Source: a virus
Reading direction: 5' to 3' (one strand)
IMG/VR virus record: IMGVR_UViG_3300045988_166360
Location: 3,753 to 67,752 of that record
Length of the DNA stretch: 64,000 nucleotides
The notes under the pieces were generated by a model. It saw only the letters and a program-made list of their open reading frames with translations, did not search any database and was not told where the DNA came from. Positions within the stretch are counted from its first letter, which is position 1. Each line of letters opens with the position of its first letter. Positions 3,267 through 64,000 of this stretch are shown here, piece after piece. The translations under genes and the position numbers were made by a program.

Positions 3267-3767
3267 TTATTTAGATTCAAGAGTGGCAACAAGTTGCGTA
3301 ATCATCCCAATACAAGCCTGCAATTCAGAAGCCGGATTAACGTCCGCTAATCTATCATGGGTCCAGATATTAAAAAGACGAACCAGTATTCTATCTTCCG
3401 CACAGTCTTTATAGCTTTTAGCCATCACCGTGCGTTGAAATTGTTTCAGAATAAGATGAAGCTCATAAGTTTCAAACACCTTAGCCCAGTTCTTAGAGTG
3501 ATACTCTAAATACCACCGAGCTTTCTTAAGGTCTTCAACACGCTTCTTTTTATACCGGGAACGCATCAAATACTTTACGGCATTTCCCAAAGCAAAAGGA
3601 AGTTTGCCTGTAATCTCGATAGCTTCAATACCGCTGGGATGAGAAGTATAATGAGAAGGATGATTAACCACATCGTTTGATGTATTATCTTTCTCCGGTA
3701 AATCTGCAAACGCCCTGGTCTTCACTCTACTAGACACTACGGTATTTATTACTTCGTGTTCTTGCAT
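3267..3767 (-). CDS. DUF3310-like phage protein
   Basis: Motif VNHPSHYTSHPSGIEAIEI...GNAVKYLMRSRYKKKRVEDLKKARWYL resembles the conserved PSHY...GIE.I..IE...GNA.KY..R...K...EDL.KA.WYL core recalled for DUF3310 phage proteins. Confidence 0.5.
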   Translation of the reverse strand: MQEHEVINTVVSSRVKTRAFADLPEKDNTSNDVVNHPSHYTSHPSGIEAIEITGKLPFALGNAVKYLMRSRYKKKRVEDLKKARWYLEYHSKNWAKVFETYELHLILKQFQRTVMAKSYKDCAEDRILVRLFNIWTHDRLADVNPASELQACIGMITQLVATLESK

Positions 3768-41601: not shown

Positions 41602-43380
41602 ATGGATATTAACGACTATATAAACGGGACTCCTATTGAGCCGGGGGTTACGTACAAACTGGGGAATGCGGATGCCAATACCGCGTGGACCCTGGTTTCC
41701 GACCGCCCGTGCCTCTTTAAGCTGTCAGCCACGGCACCCACGGATTCCGCGTGGTCCAATGTCACGGAGGAACAATATATCATTAACGGAGACGTTTCCA
41801 ATCAGGTTATTGAAATCACGTCTCCCAATGGCAAGTATTTTGTCGTAGCCACCCATGACCAGGATTCCGCGGCTACCGTGGAATCCGCGTATGCTACGGT
41901 GTCTCTTAAGCCGTTGGGTTTCAATGTAGAGGACTCATATGAAACAACTCCGTTGAATGGAGACGGCCCGGTAACTGAAGGCTTTTATAAGATTTCCAAC
42001 CTTGAATCCGGCAAGCTTTATTCCTTCAACGTAACCCCCGACGCGGGCGGCCTTAAGGCTACCAATCCCTCGCCGGAGTATGCTTTCTCCCTGTTCAGCG
42101 TAGATGGAAGCAACAATCCCAAGGCATTACTGGCCGCAGGGATTACGGAATGCCAGCTGGTATTTGTAGCCACGGAATCCACGGCAGTGCTGAACCTGTC
42201 CTCCACGCTTCCCGACAGCGAGTTTTTTGTCTGCATCCGAAATTTTAGTTTAGGCTCTGGTGGTTCCGGGTTCGACCCTTCTTCTGACCAGAGTATCACC
42301 GGAGCCTGGACCTTCTCCAATATTACCGTACCTACTCCCACGGCCTCTGGACAAGCGGCTAACAAGGGTTACGTGGATTCGAACTTCGTTTCGAAGTCTA
42401 ATAATGAAACTATTGCAGGTGTTAAGACTTTTTCTTCGCCGCCTGTAGTTCCCAGTCCGACTGCGAATAATCAGGCCGCGCCGAAAAGCTATGTCGATTC
42501 CGCAGTAGATTCTGTTCACGAGTTTGACCCCGCAGAAGCCCAAAACATTACCGGGTCTTGGAGCTTTTCGGATGGATTGACCAGAACCACAAAAGCATCC
42601 CCTGCAAATACAGATATCATGAATAAGGAAATGAGTGATGCTGTATATGTACCTAAAGCGGGGGATTCTACTGTAGAGGGCACTAAAACCTTTTCCGGTT
42701 CAATTACCTTAGCTAATGAGGCTCCACTTGTTTTAGGGACAGGAACGGAGGCCGTAAAAATTTCGGGGTCAGGAACCGGGTCTGCTGTTATTGAAGGAGG
42801 CAACGATGCAACTTTGGATGTAGCTGTTCCCGTATCATTACAGGAAACCGTAGCGATAACCAAGTTTACTTCAGATATATCTGAAATACCTTCTGCTCAG
42901 TCTCCGGTTACTCTGTGGGAACTTCAGAGCTTGAACGACGGTTGTTTGATAACTCAAACAATCCCTAGCGGGAATCTCACTCTTACGGCTAAGGCATTTA
43001 CTTCTGGTATAACTATTCAAAATAATGGATGGGCTATTACCAATAGTGCAGGACAATGCAACGGAGGTTACATTTTTCGAGGGGGAGTTACTTTTAGTCA
43101 AACTATTACAGTAGCTCAAACTGCTACCTTTAATGGTTCGGTAACGTTAGGCAACTCAGCCAAGATTTCTGGCCCTACACTGGACGAGTCGGCTATTTCT
43201 GACACGACATATATCCCTGTAGGCAACTCTGACCAGAAATATATCAAGTATAAGGAACTGACTAAAGCAGATTACGATGCTTTAGAAACGAAAAGCAATT
43301 CAACTATTTACTTTTTAACTGACCAGACTATGTGGGCTATCGGCACCAAGGAATTGGTGACTTCCGATATGCCCGCTTGA
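41602..43380 (+). CDS. Tail fibre protein
   Basis: Repeated G-x-W-x-F-S...P..xx(Q/N)AA(N/P)K(G/S)YVD segments (ITGAWTFSN...ANKGYVD; AGVKTFSSPP...APKSYVD; ITGSWSFSD) typical of phage tail-fibre repeats; 592 aa. Confidence 0.6.
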   Translation: MDINDYINGTPIEPGVTYKLGNADANTAWTLVSDRPCLFKLSATAPTDSAWSNVTEEQYIINGDVSNQVIEITSPNGKYFVVATHDQDSAATVESAYATVSLKPLGFNVEDSYETTPLNGDGPVTEGFYKISNLESGKLYSFNVTPDAGGLKATNPSPEYAFSLFSVDGSNNPKALLAAGITECQLVFVATESTAVLNLSSTLPDSEFFVCIRNFSLGSGGSGFDPSSDQSITGAWTFSNITVPTPTASGQAANKGYVDSNFVSKSNNETIAGVKTFSSPPVVPSPTANNQAAPKSYVDSAVDSVHEFDPAEAQNITGSWSFSDGLTRTTKASPANTDIMNKEMSDAVYVPKAGDSTVEGTKTFSGSITLANEAPLVLGTGTEAVKISGSGTGSAVIEGGNDATLDVAVPVSLQETVAITKFTSDISEIPSAQSPVTLWELQSLNDGCLITQTIPSGNLTLTAKAFTSGITIQNNGWAITNSAGQCNGGYIFRGGVTFSQTITVAQTATFNGSVTLGNSAKISGPTLDESAISDTTYIPVGNSDQKYIKYKELTKADYDALETKSNSTIYFLTDQTMWAIGTKELVTSDMPA

Positions 43381-43383
43381 TGT

Positions 43384-43410
43384 GGGGGGGGGAGCTATTC
43401 CCCCCCCCCC
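43384..43410. repeat. Homopolymer pair G9 ... C11 forming potential hairpin downstream of tail-fibre stop
   Basis: Read directly (43384-43392 G9; 43400-43410 C11). Confidence 0.8.
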
Positions 43411-45670: not shown

Positions 45671-46234
45671 ATGAAGAGAGAAAATTGTAAACCAGGAACC
45701 GAAGTATTTATTCCAGGAACTGTACTTTCAAATGATAATTACCCGTCAACTCCCATAGAAGTGGTCCTGCAAAGGGGACCTGATGCTTGCACAATGTATT
45801 TTTCCCCGGATGTTTTGAAGCTGAAAGACCTTTTTCCGAAAAGAAAGTTTTATAAAAAGGATAAGGTGCGGTATATGCCCAGCGGACGAGAATGTTATAT
45901 CGTACCTCCAAAAACGGATAAGATATATGAAGTAGTTTCTAATGAAGATTCGGATGGCTGGATTTATATAAAAGGCCCTGATTTTAATAACTGTGTCAAA
46001 TGGTTTGACTTGGAGCTTATTGAACCCGCTGAATCCTTCGAAGACGTTTCTTCTTTTTCAGTATTAAAATATGAAGACGCTTATTTTCGTGTAGGGCGTG
46101 AGGGGCGTTATGTCTATGAAATTTGGTTTGGCCCCAGAGTAGACAGCCCCCTTACTGAAGAGGATGCTCGCCAGAAAGCACAGGAACTTTGTGATGAATT
46201 AAATCGCAAATATAATAAGAAGTTAAATAATTAA
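45671..46234 (+). CDS. Paralog-family protein: CKPGTxVF N-domain + KKDKVRY beta-motif (187 aa)
   Basis: MKRENCKPGTEVF...FPKRKFYKKDKVRY aligned with 46241 ORF MNRKECKPGTKVF...FPKKRKFRKGDKVRY. Confidence 0.45.
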   Translation: MKRENCKPGTEVFIPGTVLSNDNYPSTPIEVVLQRGPDACTMYFSPDVLKLKDLFPKRKFYKKDKVRYMPSGRECYIVPPKTDKIYEVVSNEDSDGWIYIKGPDFNNCVKWFDLELIEPAESFEDVSSFSVLKYEDAYFRVGREGRYVYEIWFGPRVDSPLTEEDARQKAQELCDELNRKYNKKLNN

Positions 46235-46240
46235 ATTACT

Positions 46241-46477
46241 ATGAACCGTAAAGAATGTAAGCCCGGCACGAAAGTATTTGTTGAAGCTGTTATTCTTCAG
46301 GATAAGGGAGGAACAACCTGCCCTATTGAAGTGTGCATAAAGTTCTTGCCTAATACCAGTGGCCCAGTATGTTGGGTTAATCCTGAGCAATTATTTCTGA
46401 TAGAAAATTTTCCAAAGAAAAGAAAGTTTCGTAAAGGAGATAAGGTAAGATATAAATCCTCGTATGGTTTGTTCTAA
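46241..46477 (+). CDS. Truncated paralog (78 aa) of 45671..46234
   Basis: Same N-domain then stop shortly after KGDKVRY; likely decayed tandem duplicate. Confidence 0.4.
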   Translation: MNRKECKPGTKVFVEAVILQDKGGTTCPIEVCIKFLPNTSGPVCWVNPEQLFLIENFPKKRKFRKGDKVRYKSSYGLF

Positions 46478-47474: not shown

Positions 47475-47954
47475 ATGAAAAATCAAAGCCAACTCATCAA
47501 ACACCCCGGACTCAAGTATCCCCGGAAGCCACGGAACAGCACACCCCCTGTACAGAAAATCCCACACGGATACCTTTCAACACAGGAAATCGCGGATGCC
47601 GTGGGAAGAACTCCTACATGTATTCTTACTACACTGGAACGCCGTAAAGTGCCTAAAGTACGTTTCGGAAGGGTTGTGTACTGGGACGGAGAACTTGCCC
47701 GAGAGTATATCAGGGAAGTCGATGCTGACGTGTATGACCATATGCCTAACGGATATATTGACATAGAAAGCGCGTTGGAACTTACCGGATTCAAAAGTGC
47801 CGCTTATTTATCCACCCTGTTCAAGAGAGGGAAAGTGCGCCGTATCCGGTACCGGGATGACATGGGAGCCGGAAGAAAGACGAGGTTCGCGTACAATGTT
47901 CTTGACCTGGAAACTCTTTTGAGTTTAAATTCTGACCCGGAGGACCATGACTAA
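47475..47954 (+). CDS. DNA-binding protein with two excisionase/MerR-type HTH motifs
   Basis: LSTQEIADAVGRTPTCILTTLERRKVPKVRFGRVVYW and IESALELTGFKSAAYLSTLFKRGKVRRIRY resemble AlpA/Xis HTH_17; N-terminus carries mini-element copy 47519-47555. Confidence 0.5.
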   Translation: MKNQSQLIKHPGLKYPRKPRNSTPPVQKIPHGYLSTQEIADAVGRTPTCILTTLERRKVPKVRFGRVVYWDGELAREYIREVDADVYDHMPNGYIDIESALELTGFKSAAYLSTLFKRGKVRRIRYRDDMGAGRKTRFAYNVLDLETLLSLNSDPEDHD

Positions 47955-48303
47955 GAGTATCTTCACTACCCAAAGAACGCTTCATCCGCGGATGGGGGCA
48001 CAGGAAAGGCTGTTAGGGATTTTAACAAACCTGGAACTGTTCGGTGTTGATTTTTCTTTGTCTTCTCTCAGGATTCTTTTGGCCCTTCACGGAAGCGGGG
48101 GTACCGCGAAACTAACGGCAAAACAGTTATCCCTTCAGCTAAGCCTGTCCACCTCGAACATTTCTTATCACCTCAACAAGCTTCTGGATTATGGCCATGT
48201 GGAGAAGGTAACGGACAGCGACCCCCAGCAATACCAGCTCACGGCACGGGGGAGGAACCTCTGCCGTGACATCTTCAAACCCCAAGAATACATCAACAAA
48301 TGA
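47947..48303 (+). CDS. Winged-helix (MarR/ArsR-like) transcriptional regulator
   Basis: LTAKQLSLQLSLSTSNISYHLNKLLDYGHVEKV recognition-helix/wing pattern. Confidence 0.5.
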   Translation: MTKSIFTTQRTLHPRMGAQERLLGILTNLELFGVDFSLSSLRILLALHGSGGTAKLTAKQLSLQLSLSTSNISYHLNKLLDYGHVEKVTDSDPQQYQLTARGRNLCRDIFKPQEYINK

Positions 48304-48722
48304 CTCAAGAAGAAATTGAAAAGGTAGCCGAACGGCTTTATGCTTTGACGGATTCCAGGATTCTATGGAATGACCTGGACGACGAAGGCCGGAAACCCTA
48401 CGTCAATCTGGCAGACAGCCTGGTGGACAAAAGACCCGAAATTTTGGCAGAACTGGTATCTAAGTATTGTGTCGATTTCGGAATGCCCAGCAAGTACAAG
48501 GCGGTTGTCGCTGGGATTATTTCCGGGATTCTTACTGCGGTCCTGGCCCTGACGGGCTTTTCCGTAACAGGCTGTTCTTCTGTCGAGGTGACAGAAGGCG
48601 AAGCCGTCCTGTGCAAAGACGGCTCCTGCCTGGTACTAACCCCTGGACATATCTCCTATTCCCAGGCCCAGCCGGAAACGGACGTGCCTCCGGTTGTCCA
48701 GGTAAAACCCAACAAGAAGTGA
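48300..48722 (+). CDS. Membrane-anchored protein (one TM then Cys, 140 aa)
   Basis: AVVAGIISGILTAVLALTGFSVTGCSS hydrophobic segment with lipobox-like TGC. Confidence 0.45.
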   Translation: MTQEEIEKVAERLYALTDSRILWNDLDDEGRKPYVNLADSLVDKRPEILAELVSKYCVDFGMPSKYKAVVAGIISGILTAVLALTGFSVTGCSSVEVTEGEAVLCKDGSCLVLTPGHISYSQAQPETDVPPVVQVKPNKK

Positions 48723-48723
48723 C

Positions 48724-49677
48724 ATGACCGACAACGAGGTTCAATATTCCGAGTTACCCTCTGCCCCGGACCTCTTTAATCATCCGGTACCCACGGTTCC
48801 CGTGGGTACCGAATTGTTTAATGACACGCCTCCGTTCGATTCTCTTCCTGACCCCATTGCCCCGGTTTATGGGGATAGTGACGTGGGAGTACAGGTTTCG
48901 CGTCCTTACAATGACGACCCGTTGTTTCGGAATTACCCGGAAAACATGTTCGCCATTGTTTATGACCCTGAGTCTATTAACGGCCCCAGTGTAAAATATG
49001 TGGCCGGAGTTATTATTGAGGGCAACAATGTTATCCAAATCGGAGGGACTCCGGGGTCTCTGCAAAACGTAATGAGCAACGAGCATGCTCCTTTGGATGA
49101 CAATATTACCTGGTATTTGAATGTACAGAGTGACAGGTCTGCTTCTACCGTCAGCAGTACAAAGGACCCGCTGGCAGACTTTTGGGTTCCTCTGGCCAAG
49201 ATAACCAAAGGATGCAACGGTTATATTCAACAGTTGCACCGGGGGGCTGTCTTTCTCTCTACGTCCGCTTATGGTTTTGAAGTTCAGTTGGAGTTCAATG
49301 AACAAGGGACCCGGACGGGGATTAAAGTGCGTCCCGGTATCGTCATGTTGAATGGAAAGTCCCTGGGGAAATTCCCTGAAACCTTACAGGATGAGCCCTG
49401 GTATTACTCTGCCTTTACTCAGGATGGTCCGGTATATTTAAGACTTACCCTAGACGACCATAGTATGGTAACGGGCTCCGCTATTGAATTTGAGTTAGCG
49501 ACCCCTAAAATATACAATCTAGTCATAGGTGCCGAGCAAAAAGAGGACCCTCCATTTACCTACTCTTTTTTATTAGCAGATATTAAAGAAAAACAAGTCA
49601 CTCAGTATCTGCTGGGTACGGTCCAGTTACCTGTAGGTGGTGGTACTTTCTTCCCATATGGTGCTATCGATGAATAA
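48724..49677 (+). CDS. Hypothetical (possibly virion/baseplate) protein (317 aa)
   Basis: ORF; beta-rich; no motif recognised. Confidence 0.45.
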   Translation: MTDNEVQYSELPSAPDLFNHPVPTVPVGTELFNDTPPFDSLPDPIAPVYGDSDVGVQVSRPYNDDPLFRNYPENMFAIVYDPESINGPSVKYVAGVIIEGNNVIQIGGTPGSLQNVMSNEHAPLDDNITWYLNVQSDRSASTVSSTKDPLADFWVPLAKITKGCNGYIQQLHRGAVFLSTSAYGFEVQLEFNEQGTRTGIKVRPGIVMLNGKSLGKFPETLQDEPWYYSAFTQDGPVYLRLTLDDHSMVTGSAIEFELATPKIYNLVIGAEQKEDPPFTYSFLLADIKEKQVTQYLLGTVQLPVGGGTFFPYGAIDE

Positions 49678-49734
49678 TAAATCCCCCATTGCTATGTCTG
49701 TCAGGGGGAGTTTATGAAAATATAAAACAACATC

Positions 49735-50472
49735 ATGGTTAGGGTTTATTTATTTACTTATGCAAAAGATGCAAACCCTGCGTTAGCCTGCGTTCGCTGT
49801 CTTCGAAATACGTTGCCTGAAGCTTGGATTACTGTTGTAGATGATGCTTCTGCTCCTTGTTCTTCCGATTTTATAAGACAATGTTTTCAGTTGGGGGTTT
49901 TTTCTTACATGCAAAGCACCTTTCCTCGAAATGGAAACTTGAAAGGGGATAGATGTATTAAAGGCATTCTGTCCACGTTGGTTCAAAATTCAAACGAAGA
50001 TGACGTTATCATAAAGATTGACTCTGATACTTTGTTACTGTCTCCTGCTCCTATAGAACGAATGCGGAACTTGGAGGCAGATGGCTTCGGAGCCAGTTCT
50101 TTATTCCGTCCTTTCGCGGGATTATGCTATGGCTTTACACAAAAAGCATTAAAACTTTTACATGAAAAAACATATCTATTACCGTCTTCCTCTACGATAG
50201 AAGAAGATTTATGGATTGGAAAATTGATTTTTTTACAAAAGTTAAATATGGCTATAGACAGGCCATGGACTCCCGTACATACTCAAGGACGGTGGACTGC
50301 CTATAACTGGCCATATTCTCCTGTCTTAGAACTATATCGCTCTTTGGACGTAGTAACGTTTGGAACTTTTGAAGGAATCCCCTCTGTAGATAAAAACCAT
50401 GTGGCAAACAAAATGAACGCTTTAATAGACTTGGTATATGGACCTGGCAATAATACCTGCAAAGCATCATAG
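49735..50472 (+). CDS. GT-A fold (family 2-like) glycosyltransferase
   Basis: VVDDASAP and IKIDSDTLL (DxD) motifs at spacing typical of GT2; low-GC island. Confidence 0.45.
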   Translation: MVRVYLFTYAKDANPALACVRCLRNTLPEAWITVVDDASAPCSSDFIRQCFQLGVFSYMQSTFPRNGNLKGDRCIKGILSTLVQNSNEDDVIIKIDSDTLLLSPAPIERMRNLEADGFGASSLFRPFAGLCYGFTQKALKLLHEKTYLLPSSSTIEEDLWIGKLIFLQKLNMAIDRPWTPVHTQGRWTAYNWPYSPVLELYRSLDVVTFGTFEGIPSVDKNHVANKMNALIDLVYGPGNNTCKAS

Positions 50473-51043
50473 TTCAGAAGTCCCTTATAAAAACTTTCGG
50501 GCTCTATGGAGGGAGCCTCTTTTTTTACATTCCGTGAGGTATGCAGTAAAAGAAGGTGTACCCTGTGTAGTTTCTACGGACAGCGAAATTATTAAAGGTT
50601 TATGTCGTCGAAATAATATCCCTTACCTCCATGAAGAAGTAGATGATTCTAATATCCTGAATTGTGTAACTCAAGTAGTTAAAAAAGAAAAAGTGGATAG
50701 GTGGATTCTTTTACAACCTACAAGCCCGATACGCCCCCCCTCTCTGCTTAAGAAGTTATTGAGTAAGAATAATGAAAATATTATGACGGTTCAAAAAATA
50801 TATCTCCATGGTAAACTGGGAAGCCGTTTTATACATAAAACTCGAAGGCAGGAATCCTCTGAAATCTTATATCAATTCAACGGAAGTATTTTAATAGGGA
50901 GTTATGACATGGTAATGAAGGAACAGACCCTATTCAAAAACCCTTTAATGGTAGAACAGAGGGGACTATATAACTATCAAATAGACTATCTTGAAGATTT
51001 TGAACACCTGGAAAGGTATGGAAATTTGCATTGTGGGGAATAA
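50438..51043 (+). CDS. CMP-nonulosonate/CMP-Kdo-type cytidylyltransferase (NeuA/KdsB family)
   Basis: AIIPAKHHSSEVPYKNF matches AIIPARxxSKxxPxKN; LLQPTSPIR matches LLQPTSPLR of acylneuraminate cytidylyltransferases. Confidence 0.6.
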   Translation: MDLAIIPAKHHSSEVPYKNFRALWREPLFLHSVRYAVKEGVPCVVSTDSEIIKGLCRRNNIPYLHEEVDDSNILNCVTQVVKKEKVDRWILLQPTSPIRPPSLLKKLLSKNNENIMTVQKIYLHGKLGSRFIHKTRRQESSEILYQFNGSILIGSYDMVMKEQTLFKNPLMVEQRGLYNYQIDYLEDFEHLERYGNLHCGE

Positions 51044-51533
51044 AAAGCCCAGTCAGGATTTTACCCAGGAAATAAATTCCGCAGACCAGGTTGTTCGAGT
51101 CAGTAAAATGGATTATCTAGATACTAGGTTGATAGGTTCTCGAACTGATGAACTGTATCTGGAACCAAACATGGTGTGGCATTCTTATTCGCCAGAGGTT
51201 AGAAAATTATCTCTACTGCCCCGCATACCTTTAATTCATATTAGAGAATCCTGGTGGAACCGGGTAGGAGAACACCTGCTTAAACAAAAGTGGATTAACA
51301 AAGGCCAAGTTAGAATAATTCCTAAAAGCAGGGAATTGGTTATGCCGGGATGCACTACATTGGCAATAGCTGTATATGATATTTCATTAAGATTCCCCGA
51401 AGCCAAATTACTTTTAACTGGGGCAGACATAGGGGAAGAAAGAAGAAAAATATTTTGGATTCATGTTTCCGGTGGAGAGGTGGAATTTTTGAATAGACTT
51501 ATTTCAGAAGGAAGACTGAGGGTGTTGGGATAA
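50991..51533 (+). CDS. CstII/Maf-like (GT42 / DUF115-like) putative nonulosonate transferase
   Basis: ICIVGNKKP (cf AGNGPSL) and TTLAIAVYDISLRFPEAKLLLTGADI (cf TSGVYMCAVAIALGYKEIYLSGIDF), later WIHVSG (cf YIGHSK His base). Similarity by eye only. Confidence 0.35.
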   Translation: MKILNTWKGMEICIVGNKKPSQDFTQEINSADQVVRVSKMDYLDTRLIGSRTDELYLEPNMVWHSYSPEVRKLSLLPRIPLIHIRESWWNRVGEHLLKQKWINKGQVRIIPKSRELVMPGCTTLAIAVYDISLRFPEAKLLLTGADIGEERRKIFWIHVSGGEVEFLNRLISEGRLRVLG

Positions 51534-51613
51534 TGATTGCGGGAATATACAGAAAATGTATATTCCCGCAATCGTTTTATGAGAATGACACGGAAAACGC
51601 TTGATGGATTTTT

Positions 51614-52336
51614 ATGGCCAGTAATAATAACCCCATGTCCGAAACACAACCTAACCATGAGTTTGATGATTTTGTTTTCATCATTTTTGCGTACAACTCT
51701 ACCCTGGACTGGCCGGAGCGTGAGCCTCTGCTTGTTCACTATTCTGTCAATTATCTGCTCAACCACGGAATCCCCGGAACCCGTATTACCGTTCTGGCCA
51801 ATGACCTGTCGGTATGTTCCTGGGCAAACCAGCAGGGAATGAAGTTTATCCAGCTTAAAGCCACAAACCGTAAAACGATTACGGAAGCTATATCCTCCAT
51901 AATGGGGGAGAATCCGTGGAAGAATATCATATGTCTCAACACCGTATTTCCTGTGCGTGAAGCGGACCTCCTGTCTTTGATGTGCAGTCAAATCAGGACG
52001 GAAAAACAACGGCTCTTTCTCACTGCTCACATGGGAGCCCACCACCAGAAGGAAGATAACACAGTAACTTGGGATACTGTATTGAACGGAAGTATCTTGG
52101 GCTTTCGTCACGACTCTGATATTAAATCCATCTTCCATCCCGATACATTGTATCCTGTGCATCACAATGCTGAATGCGGGAATTATAACATCTGCTACAG
52201 ATACCAGTATATGAAGGAACCCCTGGAATCCGCGGTTGCCGTGGGTTACAAAATGTCCGCATGGACTGCGCCCTGCCCATCAGAATATCCCCGCAGGGTG
52301 GAAATAAAGCTGGACAAGGACACAGCTACCCACTAA
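51614..52336 (+). CDS. Second nucleotidyltransferase-like protein (240 aa)
   Basis: NIICLNTVFPVREADLL resembles ILLQPTSPIRPPSLL of the upstream cytidylyltransferase; contains partial mini-element 51765-51785. Confidence 0.4.
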   Translation: MASNNNPMSETQPNHEFDDFVFIIFAYNSTLDWPEREPLLVHYSVNYLLNHGIPGTRITVLANDLSVCSWANQQGMKFIQLKATNRKTITEAISSIMGENPWKNIICLNTVFPVREADLLSLMCSQIRTEKQRLFLTAHMGAHHQKEDNTVTWDTVLNGSILGFRHDSDIKSIFHPDTLYPVHHNAECGNYNICYRYQYMKEPLESAVAVGYKMSAWTAPCPSEYPRRVEIKLDKDTATH

Positions 52337-52346
52337 CCTGACTCGC

Positions 52347-52802
52347 ATGAACAACTCCAACTTATATTTTGATGGGACTCTGGGAAGGTTCATCAGGAAA
52401 GAAATCTATGACCAGGTTAGCGTAGACAGCAACCTGATTGCCCTGCAGGGTCTGGCCTGCGGAGAATTGACCGTAGGGGCAGGATTCAATAATCGCCTGA
52501 AGCTGTACATTTCCCATGCCTCCGGCCTGGATTTAAGCACGTCCCAAAGTGTTTCCTTTGATATGGTGACAAAGGTGGCTCCTTATAACCAGGGCAACTT
52601 GCCCATATATACGGTAGTCGATACGACTGGCGCGTACATATCTAAACCCGCAGGGACTTCCGACGTATGCCTTTTCTCTACAAACATTATTGAGTTTGAC
52701 CCGGAGAAATATCCAAGAGGCACCTATTGGATGGAAATTTCTCTCAACTGTACAGGGAGAGTATGGTGCAACACTTTTCCCATTCTTTTTCACATCATTT
52801 AA
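52347..52802 (+). CDS. Hypothetical protein (151 aa)
   Basis: ORF only. Confidence 0.4.
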   Translation: MNNSNLYFDGTLGRFIRKEIYDQVSVDSNLIALQGLACGELTVGAGFNNRLKLYISHASGLDLSTSQSVSFDMVTKVAPYNQGNLPIYTVVDTTGAYISKPAGTSDVCLFSTNIIEFDPEKYPRGTYWMEISLNCTGRVWCNTFPILFHII

Positions 52803-52807
52803 CCAAC

Positions 52808-53188
52808 ATGAAATTAGACCTCAACAGAATACTGAAACTTTATCCGCTCCTTAAAATCCTCCACTACCAGACAAAGGAAGGCTTTCATCATGAAAAATAT
52901 GATGAAGCATTCGATGACCTGGGGGAACTTGCGGACAAATTTATTGAAACCTACATGGGGCTGAATGGACGGGACTGGATTGCAGGTTCCCTCCCCATGC
53001 CCAAACTTGTAGAACCCAACACCCGGAACTGCGTTGCAAGATACCGCATGGACATCATTGACGACCTTATCCCCTATCTCTACCAGATGGCTCGAGGACA
53101 TAAGGCCCTGAACAAATTGGCAGAAGATTTTGACGAAGCCGCCCACGGAATCCTTGGTCTCCTGGAAAACTTCAGCAATGGCCAATAA
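52808..53188 (+). CDS. Hypothetical protein (126 aa; internal ATG of track ORF 52727..53188)
   Basis: ATG 6 nt after previous stop. Confidence 0.35.
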   Translation: MKLDLNRILKLYPLLKILHYQTKEGFHHEKYDEAFDDLGELADKFIETYMGLNGRDWIAGSLPMPKLVEPNTRNCVARYRMDIIDDLIPYLYQMARGHKALNKLAEDFDEAAHGILGLLENFSNGQ

Positions 53189-53193
53189 AGGTT

Positions 53194-53685
53194 ATGCCCT
53201 GTGTGTATAATAAAGCAGAGTTTTACATGGCCAATGACGGCCCGGAAAGCAACTCTGAAATCATATCCCAGGTTCTGCCACGCATGGACGGGATACTTTC
53301 CCGAGCCCGCTCCATGACTTGGGGCATGATTAGCTATTCCCTGTCCAGGACAAATAATCCTTTCGGCATTGCGCTCGAACATATGCGGGTAGGCTTCGCC
53401 GCACGAACCGTATCCCTGCCGGATGTTACGGGTGTGTGTGATGTGTCCCATTGGATAATTATGGAAACGGTCCCCCTTTCTTTCGAGGACTTCCGTTGTA
53501 TTTTCAGGATTCTGGAACCCACGGTATCCCCGGATGAACTGCACGATTATCTCCTGCATAATCAATGGTACACTCCTTCCAAAGAAATCCAACTGGACAA
53601 CGACATGATTACCCTGTTCCACTGGGAACTGGGCTACCCTGAAAACGAACGAATCAACCCACTGAAAAATGACACAGAACAATAA
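53194..53685 (+). CDS. Hypothetical protein (163 aa)
   Basis: ORF only. Confidence 0.4.
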   Translation: MPCVYNKAEFYMANDGPESNSEIISQVLPRMDGILSRARSMTWGMISYSLSRTNNPFGIALEHMRVGFAARTVSLPDVTGVCDVSHWIIMETVPLSFEDFRCIFRILEPTVSPDELHDYLLHNQWYTPSKEIQLDNDMITLFHWELGYPENERINPLKNDTEQ

Positions 53686-54409
53686 AATCAAAAAGATTCA
53701 ACAGCTGGTAGGCGTAACTGCTGACGGCATTATAGGCCCTAAAACCATTGACGCAATTCTTAAGCGGTTGACTTCGGATTCCATGGGTACCGGGGAATCC
53801 GTGGATGCTTATGAAATCCGTAACCGGATGGCCGCTAAAATCCTGAACATGGAAGACTATAAAATTACGGGGCCAGAATCCCTGCGGGTTACGCGCCTCC
53901 CCTCCGGTGATGGAGGCGGCACCCGGGAAATCGCAGGTATCTGCGACGGGATTGAACCGGAAGTGTTTAACCGGATTAAATCTCTGCTGGACAAGGGACT
54001 GCGGGAAGAAGCATGGGAGGACTGCCTCAGCTATGTACTTGAGAATACGGCCACCATTGCAAGCTATTTTCCGAATTATGGTTTTGGCTACGAATTCATG
54101 GTGCGCGACCTGGCCTTTAACATGGGCAATGCCGGAGCTATCAAAGTTATCCAGGGCATGGCCAACCGTGAGGGCACTGACGAGATTGCAGTGGATGGGA
54201 AGTGGGGCATTAAAACGCAGACAGCTTTGCTGGGGCTGACCTCAACCCTGCCCGAAGACTACGTGGTTAATGCTCTGGACAAAGCGGCCCGAACCCGTTA
54301 CCAAAGTATTGTGGATGCCAATCCCGTCAAGGAAAAATTCCTCAAGGGGTGGCTCAACAGATGCGACGACCGCCTGGCTTTTGCTAATACTCTTGTGTCA
54401 AGCAAATAA
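53669..54409 (+). CDS. Putative endolysin / peptidoglycan-binding protein
   Basis: Two PG-binding-like repeats (VTADGIIGPKTIDAI; VDGKWGIKTQTALL); catalytic domain not identified. Confidence 0.4.
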   Translation: MTQNNKIKKIQQLVGVTADGIIGPKTIDAILKRLTSDSMGTGESVDAYEIRNRMAAKILNMEDYKITGPESLRVTRLPSGDGGGTREIAGICDGIEPEVFNRIKSLLDKGLREEAWEDCLSYVLENTATIASYFPNYGFGYEFMVRDLAFNMGNAGAIKVIQGMANREGTDEIAVDGKWGIKTQTALLGLTSTLPEDYVVNALDKAARTRYQSIVDANPVKEKFLKGWLNRCDDRLAFANTLVSSK

Positions 54410-58910: not shown

Positions 58911-59996
58911 ATGGCAACTCAATCTACAGCTACAAGTAATGAAGGGAAGAACCCCGTAACCAAGTCTCCGCGGCAGAAGATTACTGAAGAAGTTCTGCCC
59001 AAGGTAAACCCCGACGTGCCGCTTCGCCCCAGCTCCAACAACGACCCGAACAAACCTGTCGATGCTAAGGCATTGAACGAAGTGGCCGCGGCCAACAGCA
59101 ACCACGGAATCCAGAGACCTCCGGGAACCCCGGAAAGGCCCAGCGCGGCCTACTGGGCCAGCAAGGGAATCACGGAACCCACGGTTCCAGGTGCCGCGGA
59201 CCCGAACAGCAGAGCCTATGCGGAAGCCCAGCGGGCCAGTTACCAAAAACTCATAGCCCAGGGGCCGACCGCAGAGGACAGGCTTCTCATGAGGGGCGTG
59301 GACCAGAATGTAAGCAGAGGGCAGATGCCTGTAATCAGAGGACCTGAACCCGCCGTACCCACGGGACCCACGGTACCCACGGGACCCGGGGGTCGAACTT
59401 CCGCGTCTTCGAATCTGACCTTCGGGGACTTCAGTGCGAAAATGAAGAATGACCTCCCCCCGGAACAGTATAAACTTTTCCAGTCCCTGTCTCCCGCTGT
59501 ACAAACAAACCTATACAACAGGTTTAAAGCGCAACAGATTAGACAGATGGGAACCACGGGAACCACGGGAACCACGGGAACCACGGGAACCACGGGAACC
59601 ACGGGAACCGTGGGGGCCTTGCCTGCCGGGGGTTCTCCCATACCTACGGCAGAAACAACCCCGCTGGGACGGGATGAAAAAATGCTGAATGTTCTGCGGG
59701 ACTCTACAGCAGACCCGCAAGCCAGGGCTCAAGCCAAAGCCTATCTGACGGTCAAGACCATGTATGCCCAGAAAGGAAAATACGCAAACGAAATTAAAGC
59801 CCTGGAACGAGGTGCCCGCGCTTACCGTAAACAACTGGACAATATGTTCAAAAATACTTTGAACCGAAGGGACCCGCGGTACCAACAACAGTATGACCAC
59901 CTAAGATTGCTGAGGAAGAACAACCCGCAGGCGAAACTTATCATGTACACGGAACTGTTGAAGAGGCCGGAGTTTGCTTCTCTTAGATTCAAATAA
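58911..59996 (+). CDS. Low-complexity Pro/Gly/Thr-rich protein with (GTT)x6 repeat (361 aa)
   Basis: Disordered composition; arrays 59352-59386 and 59549-59611 in frame; mini-element copy 59101-59135. Confidence 0.45.
   Translation: MATQSTATSNEGKNPVTKSPRQKITEEVLPKVNPDVPLRPSSNNDPNKPVDAKALNEVAAANSNHGIQRPPGTPERPSAAYWASKGITEPTVPGAADPNSRAYAEAQRASYQKLIAQGPTAEDRLLMRGVDQNVSRGQMPVIRGPEPAVPTGPTVPTGPGGRTSASSNLTFGDFSAKMKNDLPPEQYKLFQSLSPAVQTNLYNRFKAQQIRQMGTTGTTGTTGTTGTTGTTGTVGALPAGGSPIPTAETTPLGRDEKMLNVLRDSTADPQARAQAKAYLTVKTMYAQKGKYANEIKALERGARAYRKQLDNMFKNTLNRRDPRYQQQYDHLRLLRKNNPQAKLIMYTELLKRPEFASLRFK
59549..59611. repeat. 9-bp tandem repeat gggaaccac x6-7 (encodes GTTGTT...)
   Basis: Read directly; CCACGG core. 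Confidence 0.85.
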
Positions 59997-60035
59997 TTCC
60001 ACGACCGGAGAGTGAAGTATTTTCACTTGACGTTA

Positions 60036-60075
60036 GCCCCCGCTTTGATAGACTTAGGCAGTCCCCAAAGCGGGG
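60036..60075 (+). other. Hairpin CCCCCGCTTTG..CAAAGCGGGGG (11-bp perfect stem, 18-nt loop), no U-tail
   Basis: Read directly between genes. Confidence 0.3.
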
Positions 60076-60107
60076 GCGCATTATATTAGCAACCAAACAT
60101 TTAAGCA

Positions 60108-63100
60108 GATGGCCATTGATTTTACTAAAGCCAGCCTGACGGATTGGGACCTGGATTCCGAACGTGCAGAACGACGGGAGGCCCGCGCCGCAGAAAAGCA
60201 TGCCGCATGGCAACAGACACAGGAACAGAAAGCCCTGGACCGCCAGGCGAGAGAAGCTGAAAAAACCAGAAAGCGGGAAATTGAAGCAGTTGATGCCGAC
60301 GTGGACTTCGCTACCTACTTGTCTGACACTCTGGAAAAGCAGAGGAAGGAGTTGGAAAAGCAAGCTAAGGAAGCAAAGACAGCGAAAAGAACAGAGGTAA
60401 CGGAAGCACGGGAAGACCAGAGGTTTGACTGGGCCCTTCAGGATAGGCGTAAAAAGGAAATTAACGAAGCCGTAGCATCTCTGGGCAAGCGCAATATAGG
60501 CTTGTATGCGGAAACCCTTGATGACCTGGCAGAGTATGTGAACCAGGACGAAAACAGTTTTATCGACCTGAAACAAGCCAGTAAAGGCGACTCTTCCCTT
60601 CTCGAAAAACTCAACGATTCTCTGGATGCCACTGTAGTATCTTCCAATTCCCTGACCCCTACTGACCCTGCATTCGTTTCCAGGTATGGTATCAGTGTAG
60701 GGGAAAACGGACTGCCCGTTATCACTGAAAAATTTTTAGCCATTGCGGCAGACCGCACCCGTAATTCAGGGGAGGTAAGCAAAGCGATTGCAAACACGTT
60801 AGCGGCTAACAGGAAAAAATATATTAAGGAACACCTGGATGCCACTGGACTCAACGCCGCACAGGTAGAAGCGGAAGCCCCGGCAACCATGGAAGCCGAA
60901 GAAATTAAGGCCCTTCTTGATAATATCCGGCGTAAAAATATTGACACCTTCAAAGCCGCCAGGAAAGTTTACGACAAATACAACACGGCATCCACGGAAG
61001 CCATTCAGGGCAGGAAGCCCAGTGAGGCCAGCGTGGGGGAGCCTGGCGTTGGCGAATCCTTTGACACGGCACCTTCATTCACTGGGAATGTTTTTGCTGA
61101 GCTCGCCAACCTGTCCAAGTCTCCCAGCACTATGTTCCGTCTCGTCCGTGACTACGGTAAATACGTAGCCGACACGGCATCCACGGTAGCCAAGGAAGCC
61201 ACGGATGCCCGTGCCGCTGAAGCCGGGAAGCGAGCCATCACTGCCGCGAAGACAGTGGACAACATTATTCAGCGGATGGAGGACGAGTATGAGGGCATCA
61301 ACTCCGTAGCCCTCCGGGAAAATTTGATGGACGAAGCCAAGGTTGCCGAAGCCGCCGTGAAACGGTTGGCTCCCATGGTTGACCTTGACGAGATGCGGGC
61401 CGTGGCTGACAAGAAGAGCCATGAACTGGGCCGCACCATTGAATCGGATTACCGCCGTGACTATGCTGACACGCTGTATGCCGAACTGGAAAAGCGCAAT
61501 CCAGGATTAAGCCGTGACCTGATTCGCACACTGGGAACTACGGAACTCCTGAATGCCCAGACCAACGGCCTGAAGAAACGCGGCAGTCTTGATGACGCGG
61601 TTGCCGGGGCCATGAGCCAATACAGGAGCACGGCTGGTCAGGTCGCTGACGTTCTTACCTTCCAACCGGGGAATCTGGCAGGGAAAACCAGTGACCCGCT
61701 GAGTACAATGGAATGGCGGCAAGGTGCGCGTGGTTGGGAGTATGGTATAGTGGGCGGTCCTACCTTTGAGGTCAGCACCGAACAGCTTCGTGATTACATG
61801 AAGAACTACGGGATTAAGAACACGAAGGACGCGCTCAATTCCCTTAGTCATGCGGCAAGACAGGGGGACCTCAACATAGGCAGAGGTACGCTGTTTGCAT
61901 ACAACCCCCACACGAGAGAGGTTGATACAAACGCCACGCTCCAATACAATCCCAATGCCCTGTATGATGACGACCTATTCAATCGTAGCGTCAACCAGTT
62001 GCAGGAATCAGGAGCAGACCCAGAGCTGATTGAGAAAACGATTGAGCAGTGGAAGAAGACTCGCACCAAATCCGCAAGCGAAATGGTCAAGCAGAACATG
62101 GAACTGGAAGAAACTCTAGGGGCTCTTCGAGATACCTGGATGGGAACTGGTGCCGGATTTGCTGGTGGCTGGGTCATGGACCGTCTGGATAAGATGCTGT
62201 CCTTCAAAGAGTTCTATAACAGTGGCAAGGAGAATGGCCAGAGTGATGAGCAGATTCTTGCCGCATGGCAGAAGGAAGGACAGGGTACTATCAACTCCAT
62301 TCTCCGGGGCCTTCAAATCGGCACACACAAATTTGCTGATATCGGGACGGGAGCTGTTGCGGGGTCCCTTCTTTTCGCCTCCAACCTTTTGGGCAGTGAC
62401 ACTGGCCGGGAAAAAGCCCGCACCATGTGGAACACGCTGAATGAAAAACAGAGGGCAGAAGGTGAACTGGTCAAGGGAAATCTCATGGCTGACATGTCTG
62501 CGGAGATTGTCAACCTGGGATACCAAATGGTAGGTACCTATGTGGGAGGTGCGGTTGGTGGTATTGCCGGGCGAGCCCTGGAACGCACAGCAATGAATGG
62601 TCTTATCAAAGCAAGTGCCAAGGTAATAGCCCGTAGAACCGAAGCCCTCGTACCTGCCGCACGTCCGGGACTAGCGAGCAGTGTAAGCGGAGGCATCCAA
62701 CGGGTTATGAACCGGGCCGCCAATATAAACCTACAGCGTGCGGGTGCGGGTGCCGGGGTTAATACTGTCATTGCCAGTCAGGTAGTGCCCCAAGCATACT
62801 CCGAAATTTTTTACGCGGTCTATGACCGGGAGATGGAAGGTAAGGAACCCACCGCAGAGAACCTCGAAGCGGCTCAAGCCAAAGCCAACCTCAGAGCTTT
62901 AATGGGTTCAGGGATTGCGGGCGGCATGTCCATTCTGATTAACAACCGCGCAGGTATGGAGTCCTTCATGCGTAAAGTAGTGGGAGCCAAAAACCTCCGC
63001 AGGGAAAACTGGTTCAACCGTGTAGATGAACGTCTTTCCAATTGGCGAAGAAAAAACTGGAAAGACATGACCAACATAGAACGCACTAAAGCGGTAGCTT

Positions 63101-64000
63101 CTTACCTTTACAGTTGCGCCAAGGTTTCCGCTGAAGGGGCCACTGAAGAATTGGCTGACGAATTCCAGGAATGGGCTGTGACTGAACTGGCCAAGAATGG
63201 GGAAATATCTGAACAGTCTATCGGAACTTTCGAAGGAGTCGTTGAAACAGGGGCCAAGATTGCTTTCCTTGGTATGCTTGGTGGGGTGTATGGAGCACGA
63301 ATCGCAGGAGAAACCCCCGCTCCCTTCCAGCTTTCTCCCACGGCACCCACGGCACCCACGGCACCCACGGCAACCATGGTATTTAAAGAAGCCAGCCAGC
63401 TGGTAGAGAGTACAGGCAAAGCCCTGGAATCCGTGGACCCCACGGGACCCGCGGCACCCCTGCTCGAATCGGGCCGGAAGACTATTGAAGTAGCGGGGGA
63501 CAGGGGGGACGTGGAGCTGGTGGCCGCGGACTGGGTGAACAAGACCGTAGCCAATGAGGAACTCCATCTGTCGGATGAACAAAAGGCACAATGGATTTCC
63601 ATGGCACCCGCATTAGGCATGACCAACTTCCAATCTTTCCGCAACTATGTGCAGGAAGCCTCCGACAGATACCAGTACGAAGGGGAAACCGCCGCGGCTG
63701 AGTACCTTGCGGATGTTATTCGTGACCTGCCCAACACGATGGCCTATGCAAGCGATACCAATGTGGGCATCATGCGCTCCATGCTGACCGAAGCATTCGA
63801 CGCAATGAAGAGCCGCGAAGCGAACATCCCTCTGGATGACAACCTTGACCTTCAGGGTACTGGGGACGAAAGCCTGGACGAAGCTTCCAATATCATCAAC
63901 ACCCTGACGAACGAAGAAACGGATACCACGGATACCACGGATACCACGGATACCACGGATACCACGGATACCACGGATACCACGGATACCACGGATACCA
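60108..64000 (+). CDS. Very large virion protein, tape-measure/ejection-protein-like (3' end outside window)
   Basis: Frame open for >1290 codons from ATG 60108 to window end; coiled-coil N-region, Gly/Ala-rich hydrophobic segments (GAVAGSLLFASNLL, VGGAVGGIAG), arrays PTAPTAPTAPTA (63329-63364) and TDTTDT... (63924-64000+). Confidence 0.5.
63924..64000. repeat. 9-bp tandem repeat acggatacc x8.5, continues past window
   Basis: Read directly; CCACGG core; in-frame (TDT repeats). Confidence 0.85.

Follow-up and report, generated by a model that had tools for sequence, protein, structure and literature searches.

The window analysed here is a stretch of 64,000 nucleotides (positions 3,753 to 67,752 of the IMG/VR virus record IMGVR_UViG_3300045988_166360), which represents a phage-like genome, that of a large and probably virulent Akkermansia phage. 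Positions 49254-51534 of the window hold a low-GC (0.40) exchanged cassette, which consists of the C-terminal domain of the product of one open reading frame (ORF0) together with three further genes, ORF1, ORF2 and ORF3, that encode a candidate pathway of sugar activation and transfer. The genes and features of the locus are the following:

48724..49677, plus strand: ORF0, 317 amino acids; residues 1-178 are a core protein of the phage clade and residues ~178-317 (nucleotides 49254-49677) a swappable C-terminal domain (ORF0C)
49735..50472, plus strand: ORF1, 245 amino acids, putative glycosyltransferase of GT-A fold without an assigned family
50438..51043, plus strand: ORF2, 201 amino acids, CTP_transf_3 cytidylyltransferase, overlapping ORF1 by 35 nucleotides and ORF3 by 26 nucleotides
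50734..50740, plus strand: poly-C tract (C7) within ORF2, encoding R-P-P of the conserved SPIRPP
51018..51533, plus strand: ORF3, 171 amino acids, putative minimal GT29-like (sialyltransferase-fold) glycosyltransferase, partner of ORF2
51532-51576, plus strand: perfect 20-bp hairpin followed by GTTTTAT, beginning within the stop codon of ORF3, at the right-hand boundary of the cassette
51614..52336, plus strand: ORF4, 240 amino acids, core gene of the phage clade, outside the cassette; GC 0.47

Near-identical and related contigs, numbered here with the prefix L, were taken from IMG/VR and Logan. The limits of the cassette are given by the close relative L003, in which the products of ORF11, ORF12 and the endolysin gene have amino acid identities of 80%, 92% and 86%, respectively. 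DNA homology to L003 stops at 49253 and restarts at 51535 and, therefore, the exchanged unit comprises ORF0C and ORF1 to ORF3 and ends at the stop codon of ORF3. Residues 1-178 of ORF0 (76% identical) and ORF4 (78% identical) are kept in L003, where the C-terminus of ORF0 differs and ORF1 to ORF3 are absent. At the same site, L003 (8533-9846) holds another C-terminal domain of ORF0 and, after it, an unrelated protein of 271 amino acids without a family match. This makes the site a hot spot at which units made of a C-terminal domain plus an accessory gene are swapped.

The GC content of the 2,281 bp at 49254-51534 is 0.396, while that of the flanks is 0.486 and 0.474, and a 200-nucleotide GC profile has its trough (0.36-0.41) at ~49500-51700 and is back to 0.47-0.50 in ORF4. 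Windows of equal size that are as AT-rich as the cassette make up 1.2% of the plus-strand region (19 kb to the end) and 8.1% of the whole 64 kb, the latter value being raised by another AT-rich stretch, the minus-strand block at 3-14 kb. In an earlier reading made from the letters of the window without database searches (hereafter the sequence-only reading), four consecutive genes were assigned to an AT-richer block. All four lie on the plus strand where that reading had put them and the block is real, but its extent was misjudged, given that it takes in the C-terminal third of ORF0 and not ORF4. Homologous cassettes in other phages have a GC content of 0.47-0.67, which rules out low GC as an intrinsic signature of these genes. 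Because the homologous cassettes have an ordinary composition, the low GC of this one marks a recent event, and the cassette is a horizontally exchanged unit that was acquired recently in the lineage of the window.

It is clear that ORF1 is linked to the swappable C-terminal domain of ORF0. ORF1 lies directly 3' of the gene encoding ORF0C in 13 of 13 loci (the window, L006-L009, L010, L001, L011, L012, L002, L004, L013 and L014), in unrelated phage backbones and at just 30-50% identity. The spacing between the two ranges from an overlap of 41 nucleotides (L001) to a gap of ~190 nucleotides (L008 and L009), with an overlap of 4 nucleotides in L004 and L013. The gene order is another one in L001, L011 and L012, where ORF2-ORF3 are placed upstream of ORFm1-ORF0-ORF1, ORFm1 being the gene that precedes ORF0. 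In the Akkermansia phages DTMo-2021a, Chambord and Chantilly, the domain forms the end of proteins of 716-735 amino acids and is followed by an ORF1-like gene, after which comes, in Chambord, the tape-measure gene. The neighbouring tail protein that the sequence-only reading had pointed to is, indeed, tied to these genes, and more strongly than was claimed, with the cassette itself containing the C-terminal domain of the upstream protein. We infer ORF0C to be a virion-distal receptor-binding domain. It contains an invariant segment, G-G-T-F-x-P-Y-G, at its C-terminal end.

The product of ORFm1 (48300-48722) has 140 amino acids, and in it a lipobox-like LTGFSVTGC comes after an internal segment that is hydrophobic. 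The gene is found directly 5' of ORF0 in the clade of large phages (L001, L003, L011 and L012), and a homolog is present in DTMo-2021a (L014 396-722). This gene may encode a membrane or lipoprotein factor tied to the receptor-binding gene, acting for example in superinfection exclusion.

ORF1 had been taken for a GT2 enzyme, an assignment that did not survive the Pfam search, where no match at E ≤ 1 was obtained for any family, including GT2 (PF00535, Glycos_transf_2). Among six members of the ORF1 family that were scanned, one had a non-significant match to Glyco_tranf_2_4 (E 0.027), and a comparison with the PDB by single sequence and by profile returned nothing significant. The structural model, of low confidence, has a GT-A fold that is nearest to GT31 and GT8, with core-1 and beta-1,3-galactosyltransferases among its neighbours, and a DxD and acidic motifs are invariant in the family. 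ORF1 may, on this basis, be a GT-A-fold glycosyltransferase with a DxD motif. The possibility that it is a plain tail-fibre chaperone was rejected on the invariant DxD and acidic motifs together with the GT-A fold of the model.

ORF2 matches PF02348 with 38.0 bits (cutoff 22.6), with residues 4-192 placed on positions 2-203 of the 217 of the profile, and its homologs in L001 and L002 are likewise annotated PF02348. The motifs read previously from the sequence, AIIPAKHHSSEVPYKN in the N-terminal cytidine triphosphate (CTP)-binding loop and LLQPTSPIR, are present as described, and the C-terminal segment YQIDYLEDF supplies an acidic I-D-x-x-x-D. K9, S12, K18, N19 and D183 do not vary in the alignment of the three-member ORF2 family and line up with KdsB and NeuA; from what is known of these two enzymes, we take them to be the catalytic residues. 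The profile of the same family, compared with solved structures, finds KdsB at 1.4e-10 and NeuA at 2.2e-9. LLQPTSPIR aligns with LLQPTSPLR of Neisseria meningitidis NeuA (1eyr), while KdsB has QGDEP at this place. The equivalog cutoffs of NCBIfam are all missed widely by ORF2 (30.6 versus 155 for kdsB and 27.3 versus 206 for PseF). The membership in the NeuA/KdsB superfamily of cytidylyltransferases was thus upheld by the profile search, and ORF2 is a bona fide member of the cytidine monophosphate (CMP)-ulosonic-acid synthetase superfamily with a loop of NeuA type.

The gene, which has a GC content of 37%, carries its poly-C tract as C7 in the window, L007 and L008, as C8 in L006, where ORF2 is frameshifted, and as an interrupted C6 in L009; the tract is absent from the distant homologs. 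It could be a slipped-strand on/off switch, as in phase-variable lipooligosaccharide (LOS) genes, or an assembly error.

For ORF3, a start at the TTG codon at 50991 had been proposed. All nine members of the family have 166-171 amino acids and begin with M-x-I-x-I-V-G-N and, therefore, the start was corrected to the ATG at 51018, which gives a protein of 171 amino acids. No match to ORF3 was found in Pfam (at E ≤ 1), PHROGs or NCBIfam, and neither its single sequence nor its family profile has a significant match among PDB sequences. The AlphaFold model obtained from the nine-sequence alignment is confident (predicted local distance difference test 87.8, predicted template modelling score 0.86), and its structural neighbours, with their scores, are the following:

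ST3Gal-I (GT29): 12.0, the best match
ST6GalNAc2 (GT29): 11.7
MptE-type HPPK: 10.9
SteA: 10.8
ST8SiaIII (GT29): 9.4
ST6Gal1 (GT29): 9.3
thiamine pyrophosphokinases: 6.3-9.2
Maf: 8.4
CstI (GT42): 8.2

According to this model, ORF3 has a GT-A-variant sialyltransferase fold. The resemblance to CstII (GT42) or Maf (DUF115) that had been suggested gave way to a closer one, given that ORF3 matches neither PF06002 nor PF01973 and that ST3Gal-I scores above both Maf and CstI. In sequence, the link from ORF3 to PF00777 (GT29) runs solely through intermediates, namely P0100 and P0068, which reach 28.9 and 25.3 bits against PF00777 (cutoff 23) over the same stretch that matches the ORF3 profile. P0081 has a cytidylyltransferase domain together with a GT29 match below the cutoff. 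Across 51 full-length distant ORF3-like domains, conservation is highest at N8 (98%), D23 (98%), R27 (100%), G40 (100%) and D44 (90%), followed by T113-T114 (~80%), H149 (78%) and E154 (82%, with D in a further 10%). By inspection, these positions fall in an L-like motif (VGN...D..D.V.R...G.[RK]TD), an S-like motif (TT...A...L.G.D) and a VS-like motif (H149-x4-E154); no segment of ORF3 corresponds to sialylmotif III, with just ~12 residues between the S-like and VS-like motifs. In BFVD, an uncharacterised protein of 170 amino acids from 'Myoviridae sp. ctZYN8' is the best neighbour, at 49% identity, and the GT29 entries that come next belong to giant viruses, poxviruses, herpesviruses and an uncultured Caudovirales phage. 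A scan of species genomes with the ORF3 profile gave one match, of 27 residues in a Woesearchaeota metagenome-assembled genome, which was regarded as spurious. From the model and these motifs, it is suggested that ORF3 works like a CMP-sugar-dependent transferase of GT29 type, in a much reduced form that lies outside GT29 by the Pfam criterion.

Since MptE-type HPPK, SteA and thiamine pyrophosphokinases are also among the structural neighbours, ORF3 might instead be a small-molecule pyrophosphokinase or nucleotide-binding protein, in which case ORF2 and ORF3 would act on a metabolite. Nonetheless, the intermediates reach the Pfam cutoff of GT29, while none was reported to do so for the MptE-like or thiamine pyrophosphokinase models, and the conserved H-x4-E and the GN and TT motifs are similar to sialylmotifs. 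The partners of ORF3 in other genomes bear on the same question. The exhaustive search with the ORF3 profile found 121 relatives at E ≤ 0.001, and 41 multidomain relatives were scanned against Pfam. In 22 of these 41, an N-terminal CTP_transf_3 domain is fused directly to the ORF3-like domain in a single polypeptide; three match PF00777 (GT29), and in other multidomain relatives the fusion partner is a GT10, galactosyltransferase, Gb3-synthase or Fringe domain. Fusion partners and neighbours that are cytidylyltransferases, galactosyltransferases, Fringe or members of GT10, GT6 and GT11 speak against a pyrophosphokinase, which we consider hardly credible.

The same fusions, together with the overlap of 23-26 nucleotides between ORF2 and ORF3 in the window, L001 and L002, argue for a joint function of the two proteins. 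The pair is found in at least four divergent lineages and in two gene orders, and its catalytic-type motifs are invariant in the family. ORF2 and ORF3 thus appear, from comparative sequence analysis, as a conserved and often fused functional unit.

Chromosomal fusions of a cytidylyltransferase to an ORF3-like domain, of 735 and 1064 amino acids, were observed in L015 (10001-13328), L017 (6066-13195) and L018 (306-7435). In L015, an Akkermansia chromosome, the fused synthetase-transferase P0029 adjoins a GT6 gene, and the fused P0030, from an unidentified bacterium, lies 3' of GT11, GT6 and GT10 genes. GT6 enzymes are of blood-group A/B type, GT11 enzymes are alpha-1,2-fucosyltransferases and GT10 enzymes are fucosyltransferases of Lewis type. 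The fusion loci resemble a pathway that would make a glycan mimicking those of the host, possibly sialylated and similar to blood-group or Lewis structures; such a glycan is absent from the published structure of A. muciniphila LOS.

The genes of the cassette are all co-directional with the flanking genes and tightly packed. No strong terminator was found in the cassette stretch before the hairpin at 51532-51576, and no convincing internal promoter or terminator between the cassette genes and the late operon, so that the cassette genes are predicted to belong to one late transcription unit ending at this hairpin. The hairpin (free energy -30.5 kcal/mol, z = -9.5) is kept in L003 with compensatory changes in its arms. 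Its loop of 7 nucleotides is present in L006 and L007 as the reverse complement (AGAAAAT versus ATTTTCT), which suggests flipping via recombination between the arms. The element is terminator-like and possibly also a recombination boundary.

ORF1 to ORF3 evolve under purifying selection, with ratios of nonsynonymous to synonymous polymorphism of 0.2-0.45, and none of the three is disrupted in the window, L007, L008 or L009. These values, the invariant motifs and the recurrence of the ORF2-ORF3 pair in divergent lineages make it very improbable that the cassette is a recent and decaying passenger, that is, a piece of a glycan locus, from a host or a prophage, hitch-hiking with a useful receptor-binding domain. 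This explanation would account for the GC content that is atypically low against the flanks, for the frameshifted ORF2 of L006 and for the fact that ORF2-ORF3 are dispensable in some phages that retain ORF0C-ORF1.

The host is Akkermansia, because among GenBank phages ORF0C occurs only in the A. muciniphila phages DTMo-2021a, Chambord and Chantilly, and because the prophages L002 and L004 are flanked by Akkermansia genes. The host-side flanking genes of these two prophages encode SucD, a flavodoxin-like oxidoreductase, ThiD and an Eco57I-type methylase, for which exact sequences or 90%-identity clusters carry the Akkermansia name; L002 holds the complete ORF0C-ORF1-ORF2-ORF3 set. A. muciniphila YL44 carries Chambord and Chantilly as inducible prophages (PMC10197239). 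GenBank phages gave no match to the region at the DNA level (blastn), to the ORF2 protein or to ORF11. Library scans of the window identified a family-A DNA polymerase, a primase-helicase, a helicase, an exonuclease, the large terminase and ThyX, and the endolysin gene lies at 53669-54409. Pfam, PHROGs and NCBIfam contain no match for ORF0, ORF1, ORF3, ORF4 or most of the neighbouring genes. No integrase was found among the window ORFs scanned, including 58 further ORFs, in a window that is possibly not the whole genome. The same 58 ORFs contain no NeuB, KdsA, other sugar-pathway gene or additional glycosyltransferase, in agreement with the earlier remark that a NeuB-type synthase is missing.

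The function that we favour, tentatively and as a reading that falls somewhat short of probable, is the late-expressed glycosylation of the tail-tip domain of the phage itself, with a glycan that is capped by a CMP-activated ulosonic acid. [quoted passage not shown] This sugar must come from the host, given that the phage encodes no synthase. ORF3, translationally coupled to ORF2, would then cap the glycan with the sugar from the CMP donor. With ORF0C as the acceptor, the tail tip of the virion would be glycosylated in the cytoplasm, during assembly. We infer the acceptor above all, but also which sugar is used and in which order the steps take place. ORF0C is favoured for this role because its adjacency to ORF1 is strict and tight across unrelated backbones, because the genes are in a late operon, and because the cassette is intact although no lysogeny genes are detectable. 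Akkermansia releases sialic acid from mucin. Scavenged sialic acid could be the sugar, in line with the NeuA-type loop of ORF2, and Kdo could be the alternative; CMP-Kdo is usable by enzymes of the GT29 family and by Maf enzymes (PMC11288761; bioRxiv 10.1101/2020.06.03.131540). Glycosylation of DNA was rejected, given that the genes are far from those of replication and nucleotide metabolism, encode a pathway based on CMP-sugars and vary together with a domain of a tail protein.

Several points weigh against this reading. ORF0, a putative virion protein, has no match in Pfam or PHROGs, and ORF0C matches no PDB sequence. The confidence of the ORF1 model is low, and the ORF2 family scores about equally against KdsB and NeuA, with no preference for either type. 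ORF3 stays below every Pfam glycosyltransferase model and lacks, in addition to sialylmotif III, the acceptor-binding parts of full-size GT29 enzymes. Enzymes of GT29 type normally act on glycan termini, and ORF2 and ORF3 may retain a lipid-linked oligosaccharide as acceptor; indeed, their chromosomal relatives sit in cell-surface glycan loci. In the prophages L002 and L004, ORF0C-ORF1(-ORF2-ORF3) are the final phage genes before the host DNA. The end of a prophage, by the tailspike genes, is the classic position of lysogenic-conversion genes.

The same enzymes might therefore act on the host surface, with ORF1 to ORF3 extending or capping the LOS core of Akkermansia or another glycan at the cytoplasmic face of the inner membrane. 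Alteration of the receptor of the co-inherited ORF0C would then block superinfection by phages with the same type of receptor or keep the progeny from adsorbing to infected cells and debris. Receptor conversion predicts the observed co-variation of a receptor-binding domain and glycan-modifying genes, the position of the module beside host genes in the two Akkermansia prophages and the GT6, GT10 and GT11 surroundings of the chromosomal relatives (one of them, L015, in an Akkermansia chromosome) agree with it, and ORF3 is a bare catalytic core without a domain for protein acceptors. The LOS of A. muciniphila is rough and has an unusual, Kdo-rich core, each oligosaccharide carrying three residues of Kdo, with sialic acid unmentioned (PMC11436972), and soluble glycosyltransferases could reach this core. 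Nonetheless, modification of the host surface, the main alternative, is a possibility that we hold in some doubt. The window ORFs scanned include no recognisable integrase or lysogeny module, and the genes lie amid late genes with which they are predicted to be co-transcribed; in prophages, the overlap of 4 nucleotides between ORF1 and the upstream structural gene disfavours independent expression in lysogens. Late expression would also give modified LOS little time to reach the surface, and an adjacency of ORF0C and ORF1 that is strict and tight in very divergent backbones suggests direct interaction rather than a common target.

If the tail tip is the acceptor, the glycan could have a more specific nature. 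It is improbable, in our view, that the tip is coated with a host-like, mucin-type sialylated O-glycan, which would itself be the adsorption ligand, as 'bait' for the mucin-glycan-binding and sialidase machinery of Akkermansia, or else would serve the virion as anchor or camouflage in the mucus layer. ST3Gal-I sialylates core 1. A mucin-type glycan is consistent, in a suggestive way only, with the data, because core-1 and beta-1,3-galactosyltransferases are neighbours of ORF1 and ST3Gal-I is the best match of ORF3. If true, host range would be set by a phage-built glycan and not by contact between a protein and a receptor, and would be swapped between phages as a cassette of target domain plus enzymes.

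ORF4 lies outside this system, given that it is conserved in L003, which has no cassette. It has no match in Pfam, NCBIfam or the PDB. Compared with the ORF2 family (hhalign), it aligns in register, weakly, with a probability of 45% and an E-value of 2.2e-4, and the IIPAK..K of the CTP-binding loop is replaced by IIFAYNSTLDWPERE. A second nucleotidyltransferase, as the sequence-only reading had it, is not sustained by one weak profile-profile match in a core gene without a CTP-binding loop, and ORF4 would be, at most, a degenerate cytidylyltransferase-like protein. A minus-strand ORF of 234 amino acids (51461-52165) was rejected, as it lies in ORF4, which is conserved at the protein level in L003, L008 and L009.

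Other features of the window were also observed. Between ORF4 and the endolysin gene, ORF6 (52727-53188) scores 34.5 bits against DUF5856, just below the cutoff of 34.6, and matches PHROG 858, 'starvation-inducible transcriptional regulator', at 3.3e-9; it is kept in this position in L001, L003, L011 and L012. Upstream of ORFm1-ORF0, between the structural and the lysis genes, lies a gene pair (47475-48303), of which the first (47475-47954) encodes a protein of 159 amino acids of unknown function and the second (47947-48303) a MarR-type winged-helix regulator, with a PF12802 match in the window and also in its 61%-identical homolog of L003. At ~59990-64000, on the plus strand in frame 2, an ORF of at least 1,314 codons leaves the end of the window, its counterpart in L003 having a product of 3,199 amino acids; the minus-strand ORFs listed over this region are probably spurious. 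A run of G9 at 43384 is followed by C11 at 43400 (43384-43410), just past the stop codon of the gene at 41602-43380 (592 amino acids), and forms a potential G-C hairpin. Runs of G8 (15686) and C10 (16502) are found in the region that separates divergent gene blocks. The adjoining ORFs 45671-46234 and 46241-46477 have similar starts, MKRENCKPGTEVFIPGTVL and MNRKECKPGTKVFVEAVIL, and later a common K-(F)-x-K-G/K-D-K-V-R-Y motif, and look like tandem paralogs of which the second is truncated.

A. muciniphila is among the most studied beneficial bacteria of the gut, and its phages and their host recognition are little known. Inheritance of a receptor-binding domain always in company with a glycosyltransferase would amount to a host-range module of a new kind, whether the fibre or the receptor is modified. 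The locus also defines an uncharacterised family of GT29-like transferases of ~170 amino acids and a compact unit for 'activate and transfer' that could be useful in glyco-engineering, and the chromosomal fusions by GT6, GT10 and GT11 genes hint that Akkermansia may make host-mimicking acidic glycans. In the literature, of which the coverage was incomplete so that absence is unproven, no report was found of a phage-borne pair of a GT29-like enzyme and a CMP-sugar synthetase. GT29 annotations for uncultured phages (BFVD), the glycosylation of phage virions and receptor conversion by phages are already known. What is new is the reduced transferase of 171 amino acids, the CMP-sugar synthetase to which it is obligatorily coupled or fused, the Akkermansia context, and the packaging with a GT-A enzyme and a domain of receptor-binding type as one exchangeable cassette.

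To our knowledge, mycobacteriophages are so far essentially the only phages for which glycosylation of the virion has been demonstrated. According to the account of Freeman et al. 2023 (PMC10527164) given in PMC12619734, glycosyltransferases encoded by mycobacteriophages glycosylate capsid and tail-tube proteins at their C-termini. As far as that account goes, the two systems have in common glycosyltransferases that are encoded in the structural or late region and are proposed to act on structural proteins of the same phage, at C-terminal segments. Mycobacteriophages target the capsid and the tail tube, whereas the proposed target here is a tail-tip or receptor-binding domain. With respect to what is described there, the cassette would add a CMP-activated acidic sugar, and its enzymes are exchanged along with the target domain.

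Phages of P22, epsilon15 and Sf6 type carry lysogenic-conversion (seroconversion) modules beside their tailspike genes, with O-antigen conversion in the P22- and epsilon15-like ones. As in the cassette, the glycan-modifying genes of these phages adjoin and co-vary with the receptor-binding protein, and the prophage-end position is that of L002 and L004. Nonetheless, those modules are of the membrane Gtr type, whereas the enzymes of the cassette are soluble and coupled translationally to a late structural gene; the phage is large and without a detectable integrase, and its host has a rough LOS without O-antigen.

Pairs of a synthetase and a sialyltransferase, of NeuA/CstII and NeuA/Lst type, are found in the LOS loci of Campylobacter, Neisseria and Haemophilus, where the sugar is scavenged in some cases. 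They have in common with the cassette the logic of activation followed by transfer (CTP_transf_3 and a CMP-sugar transferase) and the QPTSP loop, and the homopolymeric tract within a glycan gene recalls phase-variable LOS genes. Unlike in these pairs, the transferase of the cassette is nearer to GT29 than to GT42, GT52 or GT80, and the genes are phage-borne, overlapping, predicted to be late-expressed and without NeuB and NeuC.

The Maf (DUF115/MptE-like) transferases, which add nonulosonic acids to flagellin, are far larger (632 residues in 5mu5) than the bare core that ORF3 represents. Bacterial GT29-like sequences with sialylmotifs, of unknown function, have been described (Petit et al. 2018, PMC5811610). 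With these homologues and with viral GT29 proteins, ORF3 has in common the fold and the positions of the L-, S- and VS-like motifs and, like the reported bacterial sequences, it has neither a transmembrane anchor nor a conserved disulfide pair. It differs from GT29 enzymes in size, the Pfam model having 272 positions versus 171 amino acids, in its pairing with a cytidylyltransferase and in its location in a phage tail-tip cassette.

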